Source: a bacterium BMS3Abin06 (GTDB lineage Bacteria; Nitrospirota; Thermodesulfovibrionia; UBA6902). Taken from it: a DNA stretch of 64,000 nucleotides. Within the stretch, counting starts at the first letter, position 1. Each line of letters starts with the position of its first letter. Positions 7,868 to 58,734 of the stretch are shown in pieces. The notes under the pieces are model-generated. The model was not told the DNA's origin and did not search any database. It saw only the letters and a list, made by a program, of their open reading frames with translations. Location: positions 7,306 through 71,305 of the forward strand of contig BDSY01000037.1 of NCBI GenBank assembly GCA_002897895.1, in the 5' to 3' direction. Position numbers and translations under genes: made by a program.

Positions 7868-9295
7868 TTAAGTTCGAAACACTATTTTCCTGAAATATTC
7901 CTGATCCTGTCTATCCACGCCCCCAATCAGCACGATGACTGCAAAATATCCTATTGCACTGAAAAAAATAATTGCGGCTAACGGAAGATGGAGAAAAAAA
8001 GCAAAATAGGTAAAGCATCCCATAATACCCGCTGCAATTAGCGGCTTTAATGTTGAGTATGCCAGGGCCTTGCCATAGCTGCGCGTCTTTTTCAGAATGC
8101 AGGACATAGGAACACCTAAACCATAAGAAACAAAAGTAGCAATTGCCGCTCCTACAATGCCATATGGTGGAATTAATAAAAGGTTAAGTATTATGTTAAC
8201 TACCGCACCGGAAGATGTAAAAATAAAATCCAGTTTCTGTAACCCCGTAGAGATTAAAATATTAATATGAACAGCCCCCAAAAAAACAAAAACCTCAGAC
8301 CAGATCAGTATTCTGAGTGCCTGGACAGACCAAATGAATTGTTCACCAAAGAGAATCCTTATAGCAGGTTCAGATAAAATAGAAATTCCAACTGCAATTG
8401 GCATTATCAGTATAGACATATATTTAAAACTGAGAGCATACGCCTTTTCCAATTTTTCCCCTGAGGCTAAAAAATATTCGGAGAAAAGAGGGAAGACAGA
8501 AGTCATAAACGCTGCCGGAATAATGTTAAATGCCTCTGTTAATCTTACTGCAACCGCATAATTGCCAACCGCTTGAGCCCCCTTCATCTGGAAAAGCATT
8601 ATTTGATCGATTCTATTATAAATCATAATAAAAGTTGCTGTCAGGGCTATAGGCCAGGATTCCTTGAAAAGATTCTTCCATATTTTAAAATCAATCTCAA
8701 ACTTTGGCCTGACATATCTCCTCGATAAACGCAGGATAATCAAGAATTCTGAAAAAGCAGCAATAATGCCAGCAATTATGAACCAGAGAAGCGGAGCCTT
8801 CATGAATATAAGATAAAGGAATATGGTCAATTTCAGAACACTGCTAAAGATATTGGCCAGGGTGGGGTATTTCATCTCCAGATCAACCTGGAACATCAAC
8901 CCGTATAAGGAGCCAAAGGATAAAAGAAAGCTTAAAGAGGCGACATAAACCAATAGTTTCGTATCAAAAGGGTATTTCAAAAATGTAATGATGAGACAGG
9001 CCAATAACAGAGCAAATACCGAAAGGACAACCTTCATAATAATGGCATTGCCAAGGAGTTTATCTGCTTTTGATCTATCGCGGGATAGATCTCTCACTAA
9101 GATAGCTCTTATCCCCAAGTCCATTAAAATACCAAAAAACTCTAAGTAGGCAAAGACAAATGAGTAAATCCCGAAGTTGCTCGTCCCCAGATAGCGGGTA
9201 AGGAAAATCAGCATCACCAGACCTATCAACCTACTGACGATTCGGCCGGCAATAATTACTCCGGTGTTCCTTGCTATCCTGCGCACGGTCTCCAT
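7868..9295 (-). CDS. wzx: polysaccharide flippase, Wzx-like (MOP superfamily)
   Basis: 475 aa, about 12 predicted membrane helices, typical oligosaccharide flippase N-terminus. Confidence 0.65.
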   Translation of the reverse strand: METVRRIARNTGVIIAGRIVSRLIGLVMLIFLTRYLGTSNFGIYSFVFAYLEFFGILMDLGIRAILVRDLSRDRSKADKLLGNAIIMKVVLSVFALLLACLIITFLKYPFDTKLLVYVASLSFLLSFGSLYGLMFQVDLEMKYPTLANIFSSVLKLTIFLYLIFMKAPLLWFIIAGIIAAFSEFLIILRLSRRYVRPKFEIDFKIWKNLFKESWPIALTATFIMIYNRIDQIMLFQMKGAQAVGNYAVAVRLTEAFNIIPAAFMTSVFPLFSEYFLASGEKLEKAYALSFKYMSILIMPIAVGISILSEPAIRILFGEQFIWSVQALRILIWSEVFVFLGAVHINILISTGLQKLDFIFTSSGAVVNIILNLLLIPPYGIVGAAIATFVSYGLGVPMSCILKKTRSYGKALAYSTLKPLIAAGIMGCFTYFAFFLHLPLAAIIFFSAIGYFAVIVLIGGVDRQDQEYFRKIVFRT

Positions 9296-9337
9296 AAGAA
9301 TTTCTTTAAAATAAATTACTACTGTTTACCTGTAGAG

Positions 9338-10711
9338 TTACATATCTTTCTGGGAAAACATAGCAATTTTCGGCAGCATTACTACTATTGCCGTCAAAAA
9401 CCAGAATGGCTCCATAATACGGATAATAATAAATGTACTGGCAGAAAAAGCCTGAAATAACAGCCCGATAAAACCGGCCAAAAATCCCAGGGTTAACCCC
9501 CGGGCCCAATCGTCTTTCATAAGGTTGAGAGTCCGTGTCCCCTCCCAGAAAATACTTGCCATCAACCAGACAAATACCAAAAAACCGATCAGACCTGTCT
9601 CTCCCAGGACACGGGCATATTGTGAATCAACAAAACCGACACCTGTAACCCCATATCCTAAAATGGGGCGTTTGTACCATTTCTCTATTACATATTTCCA
9701 TATCTCTATACGCGCTGCGCCGGATTCTGCAAATGTGATCTGTCTGCCGAACACAGTATAGACTTCTCCTCCTTGAGCAAAGGTAGAGGATATCCGGTCA
9801 TAAACTGATTCAGGGAATAAAATTGGCGACAAAACAATAATAATTAACAGACATATCAATAAAATATGCCGTGCCTTTTTTTTAGTTAATATTATCATGG
9901 AAATATACATCGGGATAAAACCCAGCCATGCGCCCCGGGACAGTGTAAATATAAATGGCGGCACCATAAAACAAAGAAGCCCCAAGAGTGCAATTCGCTG
10001 TCTTACCGAGTTAGAATATAAAATAAGCCCCATAACTATCGCTATCATTAAAAGTAAATAACCCGCCAGGGTATTCGCCTCTCCGCTCTCTATCCCGTCA
10101 AAAGGGGCGGCAACCCGTGTAACTCCTGTAAGATGCAGTTGCCACGCATAAGCACTGACTAAAAAACAGGTCAGCAATATAAAAAATGTAAACATCCTCA
10201 CCTGTCTTATATTTTTTATATTGTTGCTTACCATAAAAAAAAGCAGGAAATATTCAAAATATTTCAAGAGGTAAAAAAAACTTTCTTTATAACCGGTGTA
10301 TCCTTGCAATATACCCAGGCCTGTGGCTAACAGACATATTAATATATAGAAGAGGATAGGTCTGTTAAGAGAAGTAACCCTTGACAGGGCAAGCTCTTTG
10401 TTTACAGCCATCTTGGCCAGCCAGCCCAAAAAGACCACGAACAAAAATATATCATCCATCCGCAAAACAACGGCCCTGCCTCTAATCCCTCCCACCGGCA
10501 ACTCGGGCGACAGCAGCATTGAAAAGATCAGGATAACCAGCGCTGCATCGGTATTTGTAAAGGCGATTATAAATATAGTTACTGCAAGGAGAAAAATAAC
10601 GGGAAATTGAGGGGGTATTTTAAAAATGTTCAAGAGTGCTACAGCAACAAGAAAGAGTAAGGCAATTACAATAACAAGGCTTGTCTGTCCATTTTTATTC
10701 ATTTTTATCAC
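9338..10711 (-). CDS. O-antigen ligase / Wzy-like polymerase
   Basis: 457 aa polytopic membrane protein with a large periplasmic loop, as in the O-antigen ligase family. Confidence 0.55.
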   Translation of the reverse strand: MIKMNKNGQTSLVIVIALLFLVAVALLNIFKIPPQFPVIFLLAVTIFIIAFTNTDAALVILIFSMLLSPELPVGGIRGRAVVLRMDDIFLFVVFLGWLAKMAVNKELALSRVTSLNRPILFYILICLLATGLGILQGYTGYKESFFYLLKYFEYFLLFFMVSNNIKNIRQVRMFTFFILLTCFLVSAYAWQLHLTGVTRVAAPFDGIESGEANTLAGYLLLMIAIVMGLILYSNSVRQRIALLGLLCFMVPPFIFTLSRGAWLGFIPMYISMIILTKKKARHILLICLLIIIVLSPILFPESVYDRISSTFAQGGEVYTVFGRQITFAESGAARIEIWKYVIEKWYKRPILGYGVTGVGFVDSQYARVLGETGLIGFLVFVWLMASIFWEGTRTLNLMKDDWARGLTLGFLAGFIGLLFQAFSASTFIIIRIMEPFWFLTAIVVMLPKIAMFSQKDM

Positions 10712-11013: not shown

Positions 11014-13015
11014 ATTTATAAGTCTGGTAATAAGCGTAAGGCGCTACTGCCCTGGTTTTAAGGTTGATCTGATTCAGAACCACTCCCGAGATATCGGCGC
11101 CCACTGATTCTAACTGGATTTTAGCCCGCAAAAGGGCATTCCTGGAGATCCTGCCAATCTCATAACATAGAACAACACTATCTACCCTGGAAGCTAAAAG
11201 GCTGGCATCAGTTACCGGGAGCACAGGGGGCGAATCAAAGAAAATAATATCAAATCTTTCCTTCAGCTCTTCCATCAAGTCTGTCCACATTTTGGATTCC
11301 AGAATTTCCGCAGGATTAACAGGCAAATCTCCGCTGGGAAGAATCCATATATTTTCAATTCCGGGAGGCTTTTTTGTTATTTCGTCGAGTCCCATATCTC
11401 CCAATATAAAATCCGATATATTCCTGAGGGCATCTTCCAGGCTTACAGATCCTGATATAAGTTCAGTCAGTCCCGGCTTTTTCTTTGTGCCGAATGTCCT
11501 GGCAATTACCGGTCGTCTTAAGTCAGAAGAAACCAGAAGTGTTTTTGCGCCTGTCTGAGCCACAGCTAAACCCAGATTTGTCATAAGTGTGGTCTTGCCC
11601 TCCTCTGGCCCTGCGCTGGTCAGGAGAATTGTCTTTTTAGACGGGCCAAGTTTAAGATTGGTCCGAATATTACGACAGGCTTCAGCTACAGAAGATTTGG
11701 GCTGATGATGGACAATCAATCGCATATATGCCTCCTCAGCCTTTTTCCTGCTGATGTGTGAAATTTTCTCCCTGTATTTAACTTCTTTTTTATTAAGTTC
11801 GCTCCGTGCAGAAGGAACCACTCCCAAAACCGGCAATTTGACTACATTTTCTATATCTTCAATAGTCCCGAGAGAGGTATCCAGTGCTTCAAATACAAAA
11901 GCAAGGGCAATACCCAGCAACAATCCCATTATCCCCCCTATAAACACATTCATTTTCCCCTGTGTATCTATAGGTGAGGCGGGCATAACTGCAGGGTCAA
12001 CTATGGAAATATCTCCAACTTTCTGCGCCTCTGTAATACGCGCCTCCTCAAGTTTTTCCTTAAACATCATGAAGAGTTTTTTGTTGACTTCAACCTCACG
12101 AGCTAATCTGCCATATTCCAGCTTTTGTTCGGAAAGACTTTTCCTTCGCGCCTCTAAATCTTTGCTTTGTTTCTCCTGCTGCGCCTTTAAATCTTTGATC
12201 TGTTTTTCCTGTTTTGCCTCTAAATCCTTAACCTGCTTTTCATGCTTCGTTTCCAGATTTTTTATCTCTTTCTTAAGCCGCACTATCCGGGGATGTTTAT
12301 CAGTATATCTCTGAAGGAGGGCAACTAATTCAAATTTTAAATCTACTAATTTTTTCTGAATCGGTTCGAGCAACCTCATATTCATTACTTCATCTGTTTC
12401 ATTAACTTTTTTAATTTCATCCGCTTTGTCCATTTTTTCTTCAAATTTGCTCAGACGATCTTCTGCCTTTTCCAGCCTGCTTCCTAATATTGATAATTGC
12501 TCTTCAATAAACCGGCGGGCGCTGCGGGCCTGCCTGGTCTTTTCCAATAAGTTTTCTTCCACATAAACAGAAGCTGCAGCCTCGGCTAAATCCCTTGCCT
12601 CTTTGGCGCTGCTTGCAGAGGCAGTGATTCTGATAATATTAGTTCGTTCGATTCTCTCGGTTTCTATGCTGTTCTGTAAGTTATTTACTACTTTGTGAAT
12701 CTCCGGGGTGGGAGTCTTATCATTTATTATTCTCAGACGCAAGGCCACCTTTTTCATAATTGGAAATCCCCTGATTATCCTGGTCTGCGATTCCATTACA
12801 TTGCCGGGACTACTTATAATCCACTCTGTAAGCAATCCGGCTATGGTCTTGCGCTCTTCTATTTTGACTGTAGTGGAAGCTTTGTATATCAGGGGAGGCT
12901 GGGTAGAAAGGAATGCACTGCCAATAGTTACAAGAAGAAAGGTTATAATTATGGTAAATTTCCTCTTGTGAAAAATCCTTAAATAATCCCTTAAATTTAA
13001 TTCATATTGCGGCAA
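10952..13015 (-). CDS. wzc: polysaccharide co-polymerase fused to a BY-kinase (Wzc / GumC-like tyrosine autokinase)
   Basis: N-terminal Wzz domain with a transmembrane segment, then a long coiled coil (repeated KDLEAKQEKQIKDLKAQQEKQSKDLE). Walker A LTSAGPEEGKTT. Tyr-rich C-terminal tail YAYYQTYKYGYEDK. Confidence 0.75.
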   Translation of the reverse strand: MPQYELNLRDYLRIFHKRKFTIIITFLLVTIGSAFLSTQPPLIYKASTTVKIEERKTIAGLLTEWIISSPGNVMESQTRIIRGFPIMKKVALRLRIINDKTPTPEIHKVVNNLQNSIETERIERTNIIRITASASSAKEARDLAEAAASVYVEENLLEKTRQARSARRFIEEQLSILGSRLEKAEDRLSKFEEKMDKADEIKKVNETDEVMNMRLLEPIQKKLVDLKFELVALLQRYTDKHPRIVRLKKEIKNLETKHEKQVKDLEAKQEKQIKDLKAQQEKQSKDLEARRKSLSEQKLEYGRLAREVEVNKKLFMMFKEKLEEARITEAQKVGDISIVDPAVMPASPIDTQGKMNVFIGGIMGLLLGIALAFVFEALDTSLGTIEDIENVVKLPVLGVVPSARSELNKKEVKYREKISHISRKKAEEAYMRLIVHHQPKSSVAEACRNIRTNLKLGPSKKTILLTSAGPEEGKTTLMTNLGLAVAQTGAKTLLVSSDLRRPVIARTFGTKKKPGLTELISGSVSLEDALRNISDFILGDMGLDEITKKPPGIENIWILPSGDLPVNPAEILESKMWTDLMEELKERFDIIFFDSPPVLPVTDASLLASRVDSVVLCYEIGRISRNALLRAKIQLESVGADISGVVLNQINLKTRAVAPYAYYQTYKYGYEDKPGKKQEAGTEPEEV

Positions 13016-20810: not shown

Positions 20811-20872
20811 TGTCATGCCGGCTTGTCCGGCATCCTTCCTGGAAGAAAGATTCCCGACAAGCGGGAATGACA
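20811..20872. repeat. hairpin MITE (family A), solo copy
   Basis: tgtcatgccggcttgtccggcatc...gattcccgacaagcgggaatgaca, the same inverted-repeat arms as the GIY-YIG element at 41774..42180. Confidence 0.7.
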
Positions 20873-34113: not shown

Positions 34114-34589
34114 GTTGAATCAAGGATTGCATGGAATGGCCACATTGAGCCTGACCGGCTGCTTATTTACCGCATAGAAGGAAGCGGGCTTTGTCTTGTA
34201 AGAACAGGGACTCATTCCGACCTGTATTGATTAGCCGGCAGGTGGCGGATCTATCTACTAAAGTGGAATAATTGATTGAATAACTCCCCCTACCCCTCTT
34301 ATCCTGAGAGGTGAGGTATGGTTTCCCCATTGGGTTAAGGGGGATTAAGGGGGGTTACTTCAATAACCCTAAACCACTGAACCCTGAACCCTCTTTTCCC
34401 CAGCTATTGTCAAATCGGACTTTTAGTAGTAGAATAACGGACATACATGGTTGGGCAGCAGGAATTTGTTTCAGGGAAAGACAGGGCCGGGCTTCAGCCC
34501 TGTGCATCATGATCAATTCCCTGAAGGGCTTTTCCAGCCAGCACTAAATCATAGCCTCAACCTCAAAGATTGAAAAAAATTAAAAGAAG

Positions 34590-35249
34590 ATGATTAAAGA
34601 AATGGAAAAAAAGATAATATCCCGGCATATATTTATGTTTCCTTTCAGGATTAGACTTAAAAATGGAAATAAAGATCGGTCCCCTGATATTAGAGATGTG
34701 CACAGGGCGTTTTCCAAGGCTGGATGGCGTTGTAAAACCTTTGAAGATGAATTTAATCCGGCGAAGTATAGCGAATATTTTTATTTTCATCAATATGTCC
34801 GTGATGCAATATTCGGACAGAACTGTGCCGAAGATTCAGATGATGTCGTCTCTTATTATTTAGATCGGGATGTTACGCGGGACGCATCAATGACAATTCA
34901 TGTCAGAAGCAAAGATGAGCCTCAAAAATTCATGATGAATATAGCACATCTGTCCATCAGACTTTTTGAGACGGGGATCGGTATTTCTACAATAGAATTA
35001 ATGAATTACCATTATCCTGAAATGCATGACATCCACTTGATAAACGACTTTGGCAGAAGGATATATCCGCAGTTTTTGCCTGATGATGAAAAAATTGATG
35101 TGGTAAAGGACAAATTTCTTGCTGACAGGATAGAGTTCAAGTGTGGAGATATTGATTCTATAGAAAATTTTGAATATAAAGATTTCTTTAAAAAACTTAA
35201 GAGCACCGAGTTCTCTTTTAACAGGTTGATTCTAAAGAAAACGTCATGA
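34590..35249 (+). CDS. hypothetical protein; possibly the 5' half of a gene split by a MITE insertion
   Basis: 219 aa ORF that ends 9 bp before MITE copy 35259..35327. Confidence 0.35.
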   Translation: MIKEMEKKIISRHIFMFPFRIRLKNGNKDRSPDIRDVHRAFSKAGWRCKTFEDEFNPAKYSEYFYFHQYVRDAIFGQNCAEDSDDVVSYYLDRDVTRDASMTIHVRSKDEPQKFMMNIAHLSIRLFETGIGISTIELMNYHYPEMHDIHLINDFGRRIYPQFLPDDEKIDVVKDKFLADRIEFKCGDIDSIENFEYKDFFKKLKSTEFSFNRLILKKTS

Positions 35250-35258
35250 CCACGCAGT

Positions 35259-35327
35259 TGTCATTCCCGCTTGTCGGGAATCCGGGAAAATCAAAGGGTT
35301 ATAGATTCCGGGCAAGCCGGAATGACA
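35259..35327. repeat. hairpin MITE (family A)
   Basis: tgtcattcccgcttgtcgggaatc...gattccgggcaagccggaatgaca. Confidence 0.7.
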
Positions 35328-35355
35328 GAACTCGCTACTGTCGAGTAAAAAAGAT

Positions 35356-35973
35356 ATGATAGTTGCAGACTACATTAATAAATTACTTGGAAAAGAGTTC
35401 ACAAAAAGATTTAGCCCAATCCCGGTTATAGATGACAGGATGTTTGTTGTCTGCTGGTTTGGCAGTGATTCCAGTAGCAACAGGCTGAAAGAAAAGAAGA
35501 AAACAGATGGCGCCGAAGAGATGGCATATAACTCTTCTAATGAATGGTATAAATTTATATTTGTTGATGGAAAAGACATTGGCTGTGCAAGTGAGCGGAT
35601 GAAGAGAGAGTTGATAAAAAGCCATACATATGACAGATGGGTTGAATCCGGGACATTCTTCGGGATCACAAGATACAGCCTGATGTGCATAACCAACGCA
35701 ATAAACCCTGAAAACTCCTTTCCTGAAATCCTTAGAAGACATATGGAGAGGATGTACTACCAGATAGCAATTATACTGTTTGCACAAAGGGCGTCAATAT
35801 TAAAGTTTTCGGATGATGTGGCATCCTTAAGCAGCAGGATAAGGGCGTTTATTCAGAAAAATGAAAGTGGCAAAAATAAAAAAACAGAAGATTTTGAGAA
35901 CATCGCACAAGATGTAAAAGAACTGCATGCCTCCTATATTCGTTTTGTCAACAGGTATGGTTTACTGAGGTAA
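35356..35973 (+). CDS. hypothetical protein; possibly the 3' half of the MITE-split gene
   Basis: 205 aa ORF that starts 29 bp after the MITE. Confidence 0.35.
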   Translation: MIVADYINKLLGKEFTKRFSPIPVIDDRMFVVCWFGSDSSSNRLKEKKKTDGAEEMAYNSSNEWYKFIFVDGKDIGCASERMKRELIKSHTYDRWVESGTFFGITRYSLMCITNAINPENSFPEILRRHMERMYYQIAIILFAQRASILKFSDDVASLSSRIRAFIQKNESGKNKKTEDFENIAQDVKELHASYIRFVNRYGLLR

Positions 35974-35992
35974 CACCCCAGGAGCAGGGCAA

Positions 35993-36618
35993 TTGAAATG
36001 TATGACATGGCTCTGGAGAGCCATACCCGGTACAGAGTCTTTTTCTCTCACAACAATCTATCCCGGCCTGATTACAGGCTCCGGTTACAATCATCCTGCA
36101 GGTGAAAGAGAGTCGGACAGTTCATCTGACTTTCAGATGGGATTCTACTTTGACCATACCACCGGTATGCCTGTTATCCCCGGTTCAACAGTAAAAGGTA
36201 TTTTAAAGAGCGTATTTCCTAAAAATGAAGACAAGGAGATAATTCAGGAAAAGATAAAATATATAAACGGCTTACTTGACAATAAGTTTGAAATTACAAT
36301 TGACAATTGGCAGAACCTCTTTGAAAAAGGCAACATCTTCTACGATGCATTTATATCTTCCGTGCCACAGGACGGCAGGATTTTCGCCGAGGACTATATA
36401 ACACCCCACAAAAATATATTAAAAATCCCATACCTATCCGTTTTCTGAAGATTGCCCCCGGCGTTGCCTTTACATTCCAGTTCAGACTGAAAGATTCCGT
36501 GCTCTATAACGAGCTGAAAATATCGGTCAGTGAGAAAAAAGAGCTTTTCAAACGGATATTGCTTGATTTCGGTATCGGAGCAAAAAGGAATGTGGGGTAT
36601 GGTAATTTTATAGAGTGA
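35993..36618 (+). pseudogene. type III CRISPR RAMP protein (Cmr6/Cas7-like), frameshifted
   Basis: N-terminus has FSLTTIYPGLITGSGY and IPGSTVKGILKS, the RAMP G-loop that matches the IPGSS(L/I)KG hallmark. After a -1 shift in the A5 run at 36421..36425 the frame continues as NPIPIRFLKIAPGVAFTFQFRL...DFGIGAKRNVGYGNFIE, a C-terminal Gly-rich loop. Confidence 0.6.
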
Positions 36619-36828
36619 AAGGCACGGAAATTAATATACCGCAGTCCTGTTGCCGGGGATGTGGTGATTTTTGATCACAGTCCCTATTGAATATCCGGGA
36701 GGTTGTTATAAATCATACATTATCGGTTAATCATATTAAAATCCGCCTGACAAGTGAGAGGTGGGGTCATATTGTGGAAAACCATAATGAAATGGCAGGA
36801 TATTACTATTGTCATGTCAAGTATAAGA

Positions 36829-36897
36829 TGTCATTCCGGCTTGTCCGGAATCTTTCTTCATAAAGGATTCCCGACGCGCTTCGCTTGCGGGAATGAC
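36829..36897. repeat. hairpin MITE (family A)
   Basis: tgtcattccggcttgtccggaatc...gattcccgacgcgcttcgcttgcgggaatgac. Confidence 0.7.
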
Positions 36898-36971
36898 TAT
36901 TTAAACAACCCGTCAATTTACGGTTGACGTGACACTATGATGTTTTAGAAACTGTTGCTGATCCTGCATGA

Positions 36972-37135
36972 GTATTTGAAGGCGATGAAGATGAACTCTG
37001 GGCCGTGAAACTTATAACAAAAAGAAAAGCCTTGCTCGTAATTTACAAAGAATCAAAAAAACATAATGATGGCTTTATCATAACGGCATTTTTTACTGCG
37101 AAGATCAGGAAACTTTTAAAAAGGAGAATCATATG
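36972..37135 (+). pseudogene. 3' remnant of a DUF4258/BrnT-like toxin gene
   Basis: No start codon; the frame opens after a stop. It encodes ...EDELWAVKLITKRKALLVIYKESKKHNDGFIITAFFTAKIRKLL, resembling the C-terminal half of small RNase toxins. It sits directly upstream of the DUF2283 gene. Confidence 0.3.
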
Positions 37136-37375
37136 GCAACAGCCGCAACAACAATAAAGGAAATTTTTAAAGCGTTGCCTCATATCAGAAAAACAGGAGC
37201 GAAACACCTGTGGTTTGATTTTGACAAAGAAGCGGATGTTCTTTATGTAAGCCTGGAGAGACCCCAGAATGCAACTGATACGGATATCCTGGAAAAGGGT
37301 GTGTTCCTCAGATTACGGAACAGGAAAATAGTCGGAATAACAATAACTAATGTAAGCAAAAGATTCAAAGAATAA
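37133..37375 (+). CDS. DUF2283 family small protein, antitoxin-like partner of DUF4258 toxins
   Basis: 80 aa. LWFDFDKEADVLYVSL and the general DUF2283 pattern. Confidence 0.5.
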   Translation: MATAATTIKEIFKALPHIRKTGAKHLWFDFDKEADVLYVSLERPQNATDTDILEKGVFLRLRNRKIVGITITNVSKRFKE

Positions 37376-37744: not shown

Positions 37745-38165
37745 AATATCCTTTCCCGGTGAGCTATCACGATTTGCGTACTTTTTGAAAAAACAGACAA
37801 ATCGCATAACCCATTGATAAATAAGCAAAACAGTGGACTTGAGGGGATTTGGAGGGAAAAACAGGTGTCAAAAAAAGTACGCAAATGCCGGATTGCAGGG
37901 GTTGCAAAAAGAGGTTTGCGTACTTTTCGTGATATGCACAGTTTTTGGGCAAAAAATATTGTTTAAAAACAGGGGGGTAGAGAGGCGGTTTTTGGACAAG
38001 TACGCAAATCCCCGGAAGTGAAGGGATGAGGAAAACGTTTGCGTACTTTTTGAAAGAAGGAAATGTAATATTTTCAGGGAGTTAGAGAAGATGAGAGTCC
38101 GGGAATGCAGTTTTTCAGGTATTCAGAAAGGGGGATTTGCGTACTTTTTGATGCAATCCGGGGAA
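37745..38165. repeat. array of six copies of a 16 bp motif (CAAAAAGTACGCAAAT) in alternating orientation
   Basis: Copies lie near 37753 (reverse), 37869 (forward), 37913 (reverse), 37995 (forward), 38037 (reverse) and 38143 (reverse). Spacings are irregular, 44 to 125 bp. Confidence 0.7.
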
Positions 38166-38403
38166 ATGTTGAAAATCAGGGGGTTGTCTGCGATAGTGAA
38201 ATTTTGCTTGACTAAGTCAGGGAAGAAAATGTATAAATATTACAGTGTTCTATGACCCGAACAGTTTGAAGGGGATTGAGACTTGTTAAAAAAAGGTTCC
38301 GGGTTTTGAACTGAAGGGTGAACAGATCAGATTTCAACTCCCAAACTCCCAAACTCTCCAACTCTGAACCCCGAACCCATTAACCTCACAACCTGAATCG
38401 TTT

Positions 38404-38458
38404 GAACCTTGAACCCTGAACCCTGAACCCTGAACCCTGAACCCTGAACCTTGAACCT
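38404..38458. repeat. tandem heptamer microsatellite (GAACCCT)x5 perfect, with degenerate flanking units
   Basis: gaaccttgaaccctgaaccctgaaccctgaaccctgaaccctgaaccttgaacc, about 60 bp upstream of the cas6 start. Confidence 0.85.
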
Positions 38459-38515: not shown

Positions 38516-39493
38516 ATGCACACTCAATCAAACGAGCTCAGATACCTGACATTCGCCAGATTCATATTCAGGGCAAGGGCGGAAACCGTACTCAGACTGC
38601 CTCCCTACAAGGGCTCCACATTCAGGGGCGGTTTCGGCTTCAACCTCAGGAAGACCATCTGCATTAACAGGGCGGATGACTGCAACAGGTGTGTTCTGGC
38701 ATCAAGATGCATTTACACCTATATTTTTGAGACAAAGCCCCCGGAGGACCCGGGGATTAAACACAGTTTCTCGGAAGTGCCCCACCCCTATGTGCTGAAT
38801 CCCCCGCATACAACAAAAGAGACCTTTGAGCCCGGTGAGACTTTTACATTCGAGCTGGTCCTTTTCGGAAAGGCCATTGATTACTTTCCCTACTTCCTGT
38901 TTGTATTTCAGCAAATGGGTGAGAACGGGATAGGCAGGGAAAAAGGCAGGTTTGAGATTGAGACGGTAATGAACGAAAGATTTGACGGTGAAGCCGGGAT
39001 ATACAGCTCCGCGGATAAATGTTTAAAAGGCAATATCCAGGTATACTCCTCCGAGAACTTTTTCCGGGTTTATACGGATATTATAAAGATGAATCCCGGG
39101 CAGATAACAGTGCGCCTGCTTACACCGTTCAGGTTCAAAAAAGACGGGCATTTCAGGGATGACTTTGACTTTTTCGACCTGTTCAGGAACCTGCTGAACA
39201 GGCTGTACCTGCTGACATACTTTCACTGCGGCAACAGGTTCGACCGCGACCACAGGGACCTGCTTGAAAAGAGCAAGGCTGTTGAGATAAAGGACAAGGA
39301 TATCAGGTGGCATGACTGGACCAGGTACAGCAACCGGCAAAAAGCGAAGATGAAAATAGGCGGAGTGAGCGGGGAGTTCCGTATACAGGGTGATCTTGCG
39401 CCGTTCCTCCCGTTTCTGAAGATCGGGGAATACACCAACATAGGCAAGGCAACAAGCATGGGACTGGGAAAATACGAGATTGTGTGCCTGTAA
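38516..39493 (+). CDS. cas6: CRISPR-associated endoribonuclease Cas6 (orphan)
   Basis: N-terminus RLPPYKGSTFRGGFGFNL. C-terminal Gly-rich loop GKATSMGLGKYEI. About 325 aa. No adjacent CRISPR array. Confidence 0.65.
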   Translation: MHTQSNELRYLTFARFIFRARAETVLRLPPYKGSTFRGGFGFNLRKTICINRADDCNRCVLASRCIYTYIFETKPPEDPGIKHSFSEVPHPYVLNPPHTTKETFEPGETFTFELVLFGKAIDYFPYFLFVFQQMGENGIGREKGRFEIETVMNERFDGEAGIYSSADKCLKGNIQVYSSENFFRVYTDIIKMNPGQITVRLLTPFRFKKDGHFRDDFDFFDLFRNLLNRLYLLTYFHCGNRFDRDHRDLLEKSKAVEIKDKDIRWHDWTRYSNRQKAKMKIGGVSGEFRIQGDLAPFLPFLKIGEYTNIGKATSMGLGKYEIVCL

Positions 39494-41773: not shown

Positions 41774-42180
41774 TGTCATTGTGGCTTGTCCGGCTTGTCA
41801 TTCCGGCTTGTCCGGCTTGTCATTCCGGCTTGTCCGGAATCTTTCTTACAAGGTGCTTCCATGCAGAATAAACGCTTTGCAGTGTATATTATGGCTAATG
41901 CCAGGCCAACTCTTTATGTAGGGATAACAAACAACCTCATAAGAAGAGTCTATGAACATAAAAACAATCTTAACCCACGCAGTTTTACAGCAAAATATTA
42001 TCTTCACAGACTTGTATATTACGAGTTGTGTGAGAATAGCTTCAGTGCTATCATCAGGGAAAAACAGATAAAAAATATGAGTAGACAGGGGAAGATAGAA
42101 CTTATTAGACAAAGCAACCCGACATTTAGGGATTTATACGAAGATATTGTAGAAAAGATTCCGGACAAGCCGGAATGACA
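41774..42180 (+). mobile_element. small GIY-YIG nuclease element bounded by perfect inverted repeats; source of MITE family A
   Basis: Left end tgtcattgtggcttgtccggc(ttgtcattccggcttgtccggc)x2..aatc. Right end gattccggacaagccggaatgaca. The right repeat supplies the stop codon of the internal gene. Confidence 0.7.
41861..42178 (+). CDS. GIY-YIG domain nuclease (UPF0213-like)
   Basis: [29 protein letters not shown] contains the GIY...YIG motifs. 105 aa. Confidence 0.7.
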
Positions 42181-42240: not shown

Positions 42241-42315
42241 TGTCATTCCCGCTTGTCGGGAATCCCTCGACTTGTCTGGATCACAAGAAAAGATTCCGGA
42301 CAAGCCGGAATGACA
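42241..42315. repeat. hairpin MITE (family A), tandem to the GIY-YIG element
   Basis: tgtcattcccgcttgtcgggaatc...gattccggacaagccggaatgaca. Confidence 0.7.
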
Positions 42316-42580: not shown

Positions 42581-45269
42581 CTATTGCAAATTAAAGTCCA
42601 TTATTGTTACTGTGCCGTCGTTAATTGTCATATTACCGTTAATTGTTGTCTCTCCTGTAATAGTTGTATAATCGCAATTATAACCGCCTTCCAGGGTCAC
42701 TGATATGTTGCTATTAATATTCAAGTCTTCGGTAAATACTACAGCCTGGCTCTGAATGGTATCCCCCTCCACTGCTGCATCATAGGCTGCCTGAAGCGTG
42801 TCGTAATAGACAGGGGAAATCCTTACAGGAGATAAGCATGCATCTACTGTTATGTAATCTGTCCTTGTTAATGAGTCAGTGCTTCCATCGGAATCTGTGA
42901 CTTTTAGTTTCACTGTGTATGTGCCTGCTGTAGTGTATATATATGATGGATTCTGGCCGGTTGAATCTATAACTCCGTCATTGTCAAAGTCCCATTCATG
43001 GCTTAATGGCTGGTCATAGCCTGTTGAGCTGTCAGTGAAGTTCACTGTAAGCGGCGCTAATCCGCTTGCCGGTAAGCCAGTGAAGTTTGCTGTCGGCGAT
43101 GTGTCTGAGATAGTGGCTGTTGTCGTTGCCTCACCCGTTGCTCCAAGGTCGTCTGTAACTCTCAATCTTATGGTGTACGTGCCCTGCTGGGCATAGATGT
43201 GACACACGGTTGGTGATGAGGAGCTGTAGTCAAATACTCCGTCATTGTCTATATCCCATTCATAAAGTACAATAATTCCATCTGGATCGTATGAGGCTGA
43301 ACCATCGAAGCATTTTGCCTGCCCTTCAGTGCCCGGATATGGACCATTAGGATCAGAAATAGGTAGATAGTTGGGATTGCAAGTGCCAGAGAGGCACTCT
43401 ACATAAAGGTCATAACTTCCGCCTATCTCGTCCCCATTATTCTCAGACGCAATAATGGTGTACACTCCGCTGCCGCCGGTAAGGATACAACTCAGAATCT
43501 CCGCAGGGTCATTGGAACTGCTGTTAGTACGACTGTCATCACATCCGGCCAATGCAGTACCATCCGGGGCATATGTCCTTATCTGAGGGTCAGGCCCGCT
43601 GGCAACAAACTGCATTCTCACCAGTACAGTGTCATCAGCACTTGCGTAAAAAGCATGCACATTACTGTCTGATGTTACTGTCAGTACACCGGGCTCAGTA
43701 TCTCCATAAACCATGGTCGCTGATGTATTGTTTAACCTCTCAAGTGTAAGGCTGTAATCACCGCCTATTTCATCGCCATTACGTTCAGATGCGATAATGG
43801 TATAGGTTCCGTCATCCGGAAGTTGACAATCGCTAATATCTGCGGAGTCTCCGCTTGCTGTTTCACTGCCTGCACACCCTGTCAGTTCAGTACCGTCCGG
43901 ACCGTATAACCTGATTTCAGGGTCAGCATTACCCGTAGCAAATCCCATCCTCACCATGACCCTGTCATTGGCAACAGCATTAAATGTATGGGCATTGAGG
44001 TCTGCAGTAACCGTCAGCGTGTCTGCGACAGTATCGCCATAAGACATCGTGGCAGCCGTATTATTTAATCTCTCAAGTGTCAGATTATAATCCCCTCCTA
44101 TTTCATCACCCCCATACTCTGATGCGATAATGGTATAGGTTCCGTCATCCGGAAGTTGACAATCGCTAATATCTGCGGAGTCTCCGCTTGCTGTTTCACT
44201 GCCTGCACACTCTGCCAGTTCGCTCCCGTCGGGCCTGAATATCCTGAATTCAGGGTCTGCACTGCCTGTGACAAAGCCCATACGCACCCTTACTACATCA
44301 TTCGCTGTTGCAGTAAATGTACATGAGTTTGAATCATCAGGAGCCGACAAATACCCGGTTTTTGTTTCTCCGAATTGTATGCACTCGTCTGAATCAAGCC
44401 ATGGTTCATAATCCACATAGTCAGTGACCTTGTCACCAGTTCCATCCGGGTTATACCAGCCTCCCGAGTCCCTGTCATCAGATGGGTCATAAGGGCCGCT
44501 CGGGTCGCCCCAGTAGTTATTTTCTGCTACGACAATTACTGAACTGGTAGCATTATATATTCCGTATTCCACATTGCCGCTTATAGTGTTTCCTGTAATC
44601 GTTGTGCCGGATGAATCACGAAGGTAAATTCCCCGTCTGTTATTGTTCTTGATTATACTTTCTGTTATGGAAGGCGAGGCGCCATTTATATAAATACCTG
44701 TTTTCAACAGTGCTCTTGCTGATAGTTAAAGACGATGTCCTTATATAGATATTTCTATAGGTTGAAGTAGGCCCGCCTCCGAACCTCACTATCACATTAT
44801 CTAAAAGGCTATTAATACCGGTGGATGTAAAGTCGAGATAGTCCCAGTCACCGCGTAAAGGACTGCTGCTATTGCCGTCCCCGTTCGTATCCCCTCCATA
44901 TTCATCATCTTTGATCGAGGTGAATATTATCTGCTGCGCTGGAGTCCCATCGGCAGTAAGCGTCCCATCGATGTTCAGCCTGTCACCTGCTTCAAACTTC
45001 ACTACTACTCCGGGCTGTATGGTTAACGCAACTCCTACATCTACCGTTAAACTGCAACTGATCACATATGGGCTATCAGCAGTTGTCCATGTAGTATCTA
45101 CAACTATCGGACTTCCTGCAATGCAGGGATAAGTAGCAGCATGAGCCTGCCCCGCTATTGCTAAAACAATTAAAAAGATCGGCAATACAGCTATGGTCTT
45201 CAAAAACTTCATAATAATTCCCCCCCTACTATTTTTAATACTGCTTTTCCTATTTTTCATCAGAGGCAT
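42581..45269 (-). pseudogene. large secreted beta-helix / PPC x3 / PKD x2 surface protein, in two frames
   Basis: Signal peptide MKFLKTIAVLPIFLIVLAIAGQAHA. Beta-helix repeats continue across the junction of ORFs 44640..45269 and 42581..44707. A frameshift lies near 44700, next to a T4/A4 run. Three PPC domain repeats (GDSADISDCQLPDDGTYTIIASE) and two PKD domains. Confidence 0.55.
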
Positions 45270-58057: not shown

Positions 58058-58290
58058 TCTTTATACCTCTCTTTACTAATGGTTTAAAGGAATTTATTCC
58101 TTGTTTTTATTTTACTATAAAAAAGCTTTATAGCGCAATATATTGTATTTAAATTAATTGGAAGCGCTATATGAAGTATGCTGATGATAGGCCGTGGATC
58201 TGAAATAAAGAATTATATCCCCCTGATAAAAGGCCTGAAGAACCGGATTTATCCGACTGTTCCGGGGGCTTTTGTTAGCAAAAAGCGACA

Positions 58291-58377
58291 GGGAATGATA
58301 AAGGGAATGATAAAGGGAATGATAAAGGGAATGATAAAGGGAATGATAAAGGGAATGATAAAGGGAATGATAAAAGG
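58291..58377. repeat. perfect 12-mer tandem repeat (GGGAATGATAAA)x7
   Basis: Read directly from the sequence. It lies between convergent or unrelated ORFs. The overlapping ORFs (MIKG)n and (YHSL)n are translation artefacts. Confidence 0.9.
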
Positions 58378-58734
58378 AAGTTTGCAGTATTAAAACGAAA
58401 GAATGGATGCTGACCGGTTTAGGGGACATGGCTGAAGTTAAAGGTTGGGCTCTTAGCGTAGGCAGGGAAATAACCTTTTACTCAGTGGTCAGCATCCATT
58501 TTTTCGCATTATCTGGATAATGCGGTTTATGTCTGATGTTTAATTCTTCCTGATATTCTCCTTCGTCATAATGTGTATACTCTACATTGTACAAAAACTA
58601 TATTTATTTGTCAAAGTCCGTCTCGACTCACATAAGATTTATCCCGGGCTGAATCGCTGCCTCATTCAAAATCCATTTTTAGAATAGCAAATTTGCCTCT
58701 CAAAGTTCAAGCAAAGAAAGACAGATTGTAATGA

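Follow-up and report, generated by a model that had tools for sequence, protein, structure and literature searches.

corA and cmr6 pseudogenes beside an intact cas6: probable relics of a recently decayed CorA-associated type III-B CRISPR-Cas locus in a Nitrospirae genome

A RAMP gene with a broken reading frame lies near an intact cas6 gene on the forward strand of the window (the whole 64-kb stretch of DNA analysed here) from the Nitrospirae MAG BMS3Abin06, and the question raised by this arrangement is whether it is the remnant of a type III CRISPR-Cas effector locus or a minimal RAMP-based system, both of which were put forward in a first-pass annotation of the sequence. The open reading frame of the RAMP gene begins with a TTG codon at 35993 and runs for 151 codons to a TGA at 36446-48, and the RAMP sense resumes in the next frame up to the TGA at 36616-18. 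The GSG, IPGSTVKGILKS and DFGIGAKRNVGYGNF motifs, which had all been pointed out before, are present, and in an alignment with 14 database relatives they occupy columns that are invariant or nearly so. Repair of the frame by one base gives a product of 208 aa that scores 104.3 bits against the NCBIfam Cmr6 model TIGR01898 (model positions 1-194 of 195; curated cutoff 51.1 bits), 104.6 bits against the Cmr6 profile of PADLOC (profile positions 32-212 of 213) and 54.5 bits against the Pfam RAMPs family, with far lower scores against the Csm3, Cmr4 and Csx7 models than against the Cmr6 models; compared with TIGR01898, the product keeps the glycine-rich loops and the IPGS-VKG motif. The frame reading, the motifs and the profile scores, including the comparison with Cas7-group profiles that the first-pass annotation had proposed, therefore establish that the Cmr6/Cas7-like RAMP gene and its frame break are real.

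The exact place of the lost base can be approached by comparing codons with intact relatives (contigs L001, L002, L005 and L007), which encode I-F-K-N as ATA TT[T/C] AAA AA[C/T] at this point. The codons are CAC AAA AAC ATA TTC AAA AAT CCT in L001, ...ATA TTT AAA AAC CCT in L005 and CAC AAA AAT ATA TT- AAA AAT CCC in the window. The A5 run, to which the break had been attributed, is equally long in the window and in the intact relatives; therefore the break itself stands but its assignment to an A5 run shortened by one base is disfavoured, and the most parsimonious event would be loss of the final base of the Phe codon, 36419-36421 (TTT or TTC reduced to TT). Repair of the Phe codon gives ...HKNIFKNPIPIRF... 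/ HKNIFKNPIPIRFLKIAP, the same as in the relative P0008, and repair to A6 gives Leu where nearly all relatives carry Phe; the two repairs are indistinguishable from the window alone and the difference between them is minor. Repair to A6 does yield a continuous protein of about 208 aa, as had been predicted, but not a full-length one, as the intact Cmr6 relatives are 250-260 aa long and have in common approximately 50 N-terminal residues (M..NASF.YYR...) that are missing in the window. The first ~49 codons of cmr6 (148 nt by comparison with L005) are absent together with the native start, and the TTG at 35993, formerly taken as the start of the gene, sits in sequence derived from corA. Contrary to the earlier expectation, the gene would thus remain incomplete even with a clean A6, because the first 148 nt and the start codon would still be gone. 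No complete, uninterrupted cmr6 of the size usual in the clade (250-260 aa) is present, the frame being broken at ~36420 and the 5' end missing; unlike Cmr6 of its clade, the gene of the window has no N-terminal extension of ~49 residues, no native start and no open frame. It is best described as a cmr6 pseudogene corresponding to codons 50-254 (36021..36618, forward strand), with 86% nucleotide identity to L005, a 1-nt deletion at 36419-36421 and a stop at 36446-48 in the original frame.

Two open reading frames upstream of cmr6 (34590..35249, 219 aa; 35356..35973, 205 aa) have no match in Pfam or NCBIfam, and are 40-55% identical to consecutive portions of a 768-aa CorA-like protein encoded in locus L001 and, by tblastn, 85-94% identical in amino acid sequence to the 592-aa CorA of contig L012. 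Joined, they score 346.5 bits against the CorA-like profile of PADLOC (profile positions 1-355 of 446), a similarity to the soluble domain of the CRISPR-associated CorA-like proteins. That the two might encode a novel partner of Cmr6 was considered and rejected, as both are fragments of corA. The homologs are proteins of 500-600 aa, many of them with a C-terminal Pfam CorA domain, and they run approximately 165 residues further, through ...GMNLYF..., than the remnant, in which homology stops at codon ~422 of 592 and the C-terminal CorA transmembrane domain (GMN segment) is absent. Truncation at the N-terminus, considered in view of the 768-aa length of the CorA in L001, was rejected because most homologs are 500-600 aa long and begin at the start of the open reading frame in the window. 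The 5' part of the corA pseudogene (34590..35195, forward strand; codons 1-202 of ~592) has 92% nucleotide and 94% amino acid identity to L012, and its N-terminus aligns with full-length homologs; the middle part (35346..36021, forward strand; codons ~201-422) has 92% nucleotide identity to L012 1381..2047. Alignment of the middle part with L012 places a missing nucleotide after 35955 and an extra A at 35991/92, with a TAA in the corA frame at 35971-73 between these two 1-nt indels, and tblastn shows the frame switches.

Upstream of corA there is a putative sigma-70-like promoter, TTGTCA-17-TAGAAT (34407..34435, forward strand), found by a promoter scan with 10 of 12 matches; the region is conserved in L012 (92%), and a block that resembles it by eye precedes the CARF-cas10 operon of the type III-D locus L011, which is described below. 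Heptamer tandem repeats, (TGAACCC)n, are found only just upstream of this promoter (34378-34391) and of cas6 (38365-38457), and GAACTTT/GAACC repeats precede the CARF-cas10 operon (L011 ~11790-11815); these may be a common upstream element or a variable simple-sequence tract.

The two parts of corA are separated by an insertion of 150 bp (35196..35345, forward strand) that is absent from L012. It is bounded by a duplication of 7 nt, TAAAAAA (35189-95 and 35346-52), which is single in L012 (1381-1387), and at its core two copies of a 23-nt palindromic repeat, TGTCATTCC[C/G]GCTTGTC[G/C]GGAAT, are arranged as an inverted pair; this repeat has ten copies in the window compared to zero expected; only the central ~73 nt of the insertion match other copies of the palindromic repeat. 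Copies (TGTCATTCCGGCTTGTCCGGAAT) are located at 20811-20872, 35259-35327, 36829-36897, 41774-41840, 42158-42180 and 42241-42315, mostly as inverted pairs 60-75 bp long. Some of them flank a small gene for a GIY-YIG nuclease (41861..42178; Pfam 47 bits), and others lie inside corA and inside a small open reading frame of no assigned family; the palindromic repeat may be a mobile, MITE-like element tied to the GIY-YIG gene. Other repetitive sequences of the window are a 12-nt tandem repeat, AGGGAATGATAA, in 7.5 copies with 98% matches (58290-58379) and a 333-bp tandem duplication of 1.9 copies with 80% matches (43696-44321) inside a long open reading frame on the minus strand (42581..44707). An Rfam scan of the window found nothing.

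What happened between corA and cmr6 can be read from three collinear blastn blocks, in which 34386..35195 of the window corresponds to L012 569..1387 (92%), 35346..36021 to L012 1381..2047 (92%) and 36021..36688 to L005 1446..2132 (86%), where cmr6 starts at 1298. The homologies to corA of L012 and to cmr6 of L005 meet at one common base, 36021 (forward strand), a deletion junction with 1-nt microhomology (C) that joins corA codon ~422 to nucleotide 149 (codon 50) of cmr6; mapping at this resolution of one base is possible because a relative with 86-92% identity exists. Gone are the 3' end of corA (~510 nt, encoding the membrane domain), cmr1, cas10, cmr3, cmr4, cmr5 and 148 nt of cmr6. The size of the deletion, ~5.9-6 kb from L012 plus L005 and from the contiguous locus L008, is an estimate because L012 (array-corA-cmr1-cas10-cmr3) and L005 (cmr4-cmr5-cmr6), which come from the same metagenome sample (ERZ23498652), do not overlap and may be from different strains. 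That they form one contiguous relative was rejected for want of overlap, and they differ in dS (0.10-0.19 versus 0.37). The 3' end of L012 and the 5' end of L005, where the break falls between cmr3 and cmr4, carry the inverted sequences CTCACTTTCCGCACA and TGTGCGGAAAATGAG, which hint that an insertion element may also lie between cmr3 and cmr4 in the operon of the closest relative.

The missing genes are not elsewhere in the window. Cas10 queries from L001, L008, L011 and L012 gave no tblastn match in the 64 kb, nor did Cmr1, Cas10, Cmr3, Cmr4, Cmr5, RT-Cas1, Cas2, HEPN and NTase proteins from five loci; with all Cas proteins of the five reference loci as queries, tblastn of the 64 kb returned only corA (codons 1-422), cmr6 (codons 50-254), cas6 and the stump of a yafQ gene. 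The earlier statement that cas10, cas1 and cas2 are absent is thus correct for the 64-kb window, in which a type III-B effector module, with its cas10/cmr2 signature and cmr1, cmr3, cmr4 and cmr5, is not found. Neither the window nor the closest relative contig yielded an NrN, DEDD or SAM-lyase partner.

In relatives, the gene order is corA - cmr1 - cas10/cmr2 - cmr3 - cmr4 - cmr5 - cmr6, and beyond cmr6 there are often small toxin-antitoxin genes, cas6, RT-cas1, cas2 and an array. The full order from corA to cmr6, in one orientation, occurs in 14 of the 15 genome loci that have at least 7 kb upstream of cmr6, these 15 being the informative ones among 26 loci of species-representative genomes. 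The operon from corA to cmr6 is found, whole or partial, on contigs L001, L002, L003, L008 and L010, in several cases with cas6 downstream, and cas10 is present in all relatives with enough flanking sequence. Contig L020 (Thermodesulfobacteriota MAG063, JAYENE010000293.1) has a full-length cmr6 at 8887-9687, and the 8.8 kb upstream of it contain neither corA nor any cmr gene; the gene upstream of cmr6 encodes a fusion of ParB_N and a DNA methylase, and the genes 3' of cmr6 match those that follow cmr6 in L008. L020 may be a further locus that has been rearranged or has decayed.

The window contains a single perfect 36-nt CRISPR repeat that had been overlooked in the first-pass annotation, GTTCTATGACCCGAACAGTTTGAAGGGGATTGAGAC (38247..38282, forward strand), an exact match to the repeat of the seven-repeat array with which L012 starts, directly upstream of corA; a solo copy of the same repeat adjoins the second cas6 gene of the organism in L011. 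There is no array of two or more repeats in the window by TRF or by a search for spaced direct repeats, collapse during assembly being possible, and no second copy of GTTCTATGACCCGAACAGTTTGAAGGGGATTGAGAC in the window at up to three mismatches; an exact scan of genome and metagenome contig collections gave no match. A second, degenerate repeat after the solo repeat was considered and set aside as not significant on inspection. The end of the repeat, ATTGAGAC, is presumably the kind of 8-nt sequence that forms the 5' handle of crRNA. Upstream of corA, 34340..34369 (forward strand) matches L012 488..517 at 26 of 30 positions, with a score of 40 compared to a mean of 15.4 and a maximum of 26 for shuffled sequences, and represents a trace of a lost array end (the tail of the degenerate terminal repeat plus its right flank). 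The 18 nt before the solo repeat (38229..38246) are identical to L012 positions 2-19, which flank its array. A putative CRISPR leader, so named for its position, occupies 37772..38246 (forward strand) and contains six copies of ATTTGCGTACTTTTT (four forward, two reverse; 0.33 expected), all within 37772..38149, which could be regulator-binding sites; nothing comparable to this cluster was retrieved from the relatives. The putative leader and the solo repeat lie between cmr6 and cas6, whereas the array of the relative is upstream of corA, and to account for their position one has to assume a second array or one or more additional rearrangements. The solo repeat is present in MEGAHIT k127 and SPAdes contigs alike, and may be either a real solo repeat or a collapsed array.

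The cas6 gene of the window (38516..39493, forward strand) is intact and encodes a protein of 325 aa in an open frame, with a full-length match to the Cas6 profile of PADLOC (358.9 bits, profile positions 3-295 of 296) and 65 bits against Pfam PF10040. Assemblies of the same genome contain a paralog (P0242) that is 88% identical without gaps. Comparison of the two gives dS of 0.49, dN of 0.062 and dN/dS of 0.13; therefore purifying selection has acted on both copies during most of the time since they diverged. The second cas6 is on DRFC01000080.1 (GCA_011050745.1; L011 10001-20978) and is followed by the solo copy of the repeat, relB/yafQ, CARF (Card1-like), cas10, csx10, csx7-like RAMPs, csx19 and a TIGR03986 RAMP fused to an AAA/SMC-like region, which is a complete type III-D locus with fused RAMPs in the same genome (Nitrospirae MAG BMS3Abin06). 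Therefore the organism has cas10, only not in the window: extending the search to the rest of the genome, as had been advised, does find the gene, on another contig and in a type III-D locus. The type III-B/CorA locus could plausibly have been lost because this second type III system made it redundant, and cas6 would have been kept because the complete type III-D system uses an identical repeat.

Small genes at either side of the remnant are also broken. Directly after lemA lies what is left of a yafQ-type toxin gene, its ~29 codons at the 3' end (34141..34227, forward strand; tblastn with YafQ residues 60-88 of L011, 93%), which scores 36 bits against the Pfam family YafQ_toxin (profile positions 59-86 of 88) and has 92% nucleotide identity to L011 11590..11705, the yafQ of the type III-D locus; this similarity suggests that recombination may have occurred between the two CRISPR loci or that they have modules in common. 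Between cmr6 and cas6, a pair of small genes is discernible by reading of the sequence (36687..37375, forward strand). The first (36687..37157) has no family match and is disrupted twice, by a palindromic element at 36829-36897 and by a TGA in frame at 36969, and the second (37133..37375) is an intact DUF2283 gene (Pfam 35 bits). Relatives carry other toxin-antitoxin genes (PIN-type pairs) at this position; the broken gene is possibly a toxin gene, judging solely from its position before DUF2283, and the pair may be a decayed toxin-antitoxin module.

All of these features are accommodated by a recently decayed CorA-associated type III-B locus of which corA and cmr6 are pseudogene relics, a reading to which a probability of roughly 0.93 is assigned. 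The first of the two earlier proposals, a remnant of a type III effector locus, is thereby upheld, and the homologies of corA and cmr6 and the operons of the relatives make it type III-B. The ancestral locus would have been organized as CRISPR array - corA - cmr1 - cas10/cmr2 - cmr3 - cmr4 - cmr5 - cmr6 - small toxin-antitoxin genes - cas6, and by homology its Cmr complex is predicted to have sensed foreign RNA, upon which Cas10 would have made SAM-AMP that activated CorA. A single deletion of ~6 kb would have fused corA codon ~422 to cmr6 codon 50, and the further lesions are the 150-bp insertion, the two indels of corA, the 1-nt deletion in cmr6, loss of the upstream array and truncation of yafQ, with cas6, the leader-like region and one repeat remaining, presumably for use by the type III-D system. 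No working protein is possible from 34590..36618, so this stretch is a pseudogene relic, and the occurrence of independent lesions side by side fits true pseudogenisation. The dN/dS of the remnants compared to the relative is 0.16-0.27, a figure that is based on few substitutions; purifying selection would thus have acted while most of the divergence from that relative built up, and the decay would be recent relative to the split from it.

A variant of this history is that the decay was not neutral, in that cas6, the leader-like region and the repeat were kept by selection as a module that processes crRNA for the type III-D system on the other contig and the CorA arm was actively selected against. 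Selection of the latter kind could be due, for example, to toxicity of CorA or to cross-talk with SAM-AMP from an effector of the III-D type. This is considered unlikely; if true, it would make the locus a case from nature in which type III systems of one genome have swapped effectors.

The lesions of 1 nt, the junction and the single-repeat state are read from consensus assemblies that may share raw data. A MEGAHIT contig from DRR093005 reproduces the sequence of the window, including the frameshift, over 8660 bp without gaps and with a single mismatch, and SPAdes contigs from ERZ1742237 (326x) and ERZ1742238 (11x) are 100% identical to the window sequence, which makes a random consensus error unlikely even though raw data may be common to the assemblies. 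Contig L039 (ERZ1742236), considered as an independent strain for comparison, was uninformative, as it ends in adapter sequence before the lesions; an Illumina adapter (AGATCGGAAGAGCGTCGTGTAGGGAAAGAGTGT...) at L039 9740-9835 has given rise to an artefactual 197-aa corA product in a protein database. The most durable of the artefact explanations is that the corA/cmr6 junction, and possibly the single repeat, are assembly chimeras and that the organism in reality carries the operon intact and an array of the normal kind. The sequence does derive from metagenome bins, CRISPR arrays with variable spacers tend to collapse in short-read assemblies, and exactly one repeat is found at both cas6 loci of this genome. 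Against this, microhomology of 1 nt is far below what a de Bruijn mis-join needs, the junction recurs in k=127 MEGAHIT and SPAdes assemblies of different accessions, the neighbouring independent lesions fit real decay, and no contig with an intact copy at greater than 92% identity was found for the organism. A chimeric junction is thus very improbable, and the part of the explanation that survives better is collapse of an array at the solo repeat.

Still less probable is an error in sequencing or assembly of the homopolymer, by which the true gene would be intact (A6) and a stand-alone Cmr6 would form a minimal RAMP-based system with cas6. A one-base repair does give an open reading frame that covers the whole TIGR01898 model, cas6 is intact nearby, and L020 offers a full-length cmr6 without cmr genes in the 8.8 kb upstream. 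However, the same sequence was obtained in MEGAHIT and SPAdes assemblies, one of them at 326x; the A5 run is as long in intact relatives; the repaired gene would still be without 148 nt of 5' coding sequence and a start, its TTG being derived from corA; its neighbour is a multiply broken corA; and there is no cas10 and no cmr1-5 in the window. To our knowledge, Cmr6 occurs only as a subunit of a Cas10-containing complex. The second of the earlier proposals, a minimal RAMP-based system, is accordingly abandoned, as cmr6 was truncated at its 5' end by a deletion of ~6 kb, is frameshifted and is flanked by broken genes. Weakest of all, and close to negligible, is the idea that Cmr6 production is regulated through the break, by programmed -1 ribosomal frameshifting or by phase variation: on inspection, TTA AAA A holds a lysine codon, and slippage there in the A site could bring back the downstream frame at a low level, but A-TTA-AAA is not a canonical X XXY YYZ heptamer, all 14 aligned relatives are in one frame here except P0002, which is the window's own frameshifted open reading frame, a run of five A is too short to cause efficient slippage in transcription, and cmr6 is truncated and its partners deleted, so nothing is left to regulate.

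The preferred reading, a decayed CorA-associated type III-B locus, can be set beside a characterized system of this kind. In Bacteroides fragilis, the Cmr complex senses foreign RNA and Cas10 makes SAM-AMP, which binds and activates the CorA membrane effector, and a CorA cut at residue 428, without the membrane domain, confers no immunity (PMC10600005, 2023). As in that CorA-type III-B system, relatives of both remnants are found in corA-cmr1-cas10-cmr3-cmr4-cmr5-cmr6 operons, often with cas6 and RT-cas1/cas2, but the window keeps only codons 1-422 of corA, broken, and codons 50-254 of cmr6, frameshifted, and is without cas10, cmr1, cmr3-5, the membrane domain of CorA, adaptation genes and an array. 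Compared to other degraded or orphan CRISPR-Cas loci, there is no difference in kind: here too the pseudogenised effector genes have an intact cas6 and one repeat as neighbours, and here too there is a second, complete system (type III-D, with an 88% identical cas6 and an identical repeat).

The locus is therefore to be classed with the ordinary relics of known systems; it does not represent a new minimal system and raises no new biological question. For annotation, the RAMP open reading frame of 148-151 aa and the hypothetical proteins of 219 and 205 aa are fragments of cmr6 and corA pseudogenes and should be labelled accordingly; to count them as an orphan Cmr6 or as a new minimal system of RAMP type would be a mistake. 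For the biology of these systems, the locus is a base-resolved example of a CorA-type III-B system that was lost and a cas6 that was retained beside a second type III system.
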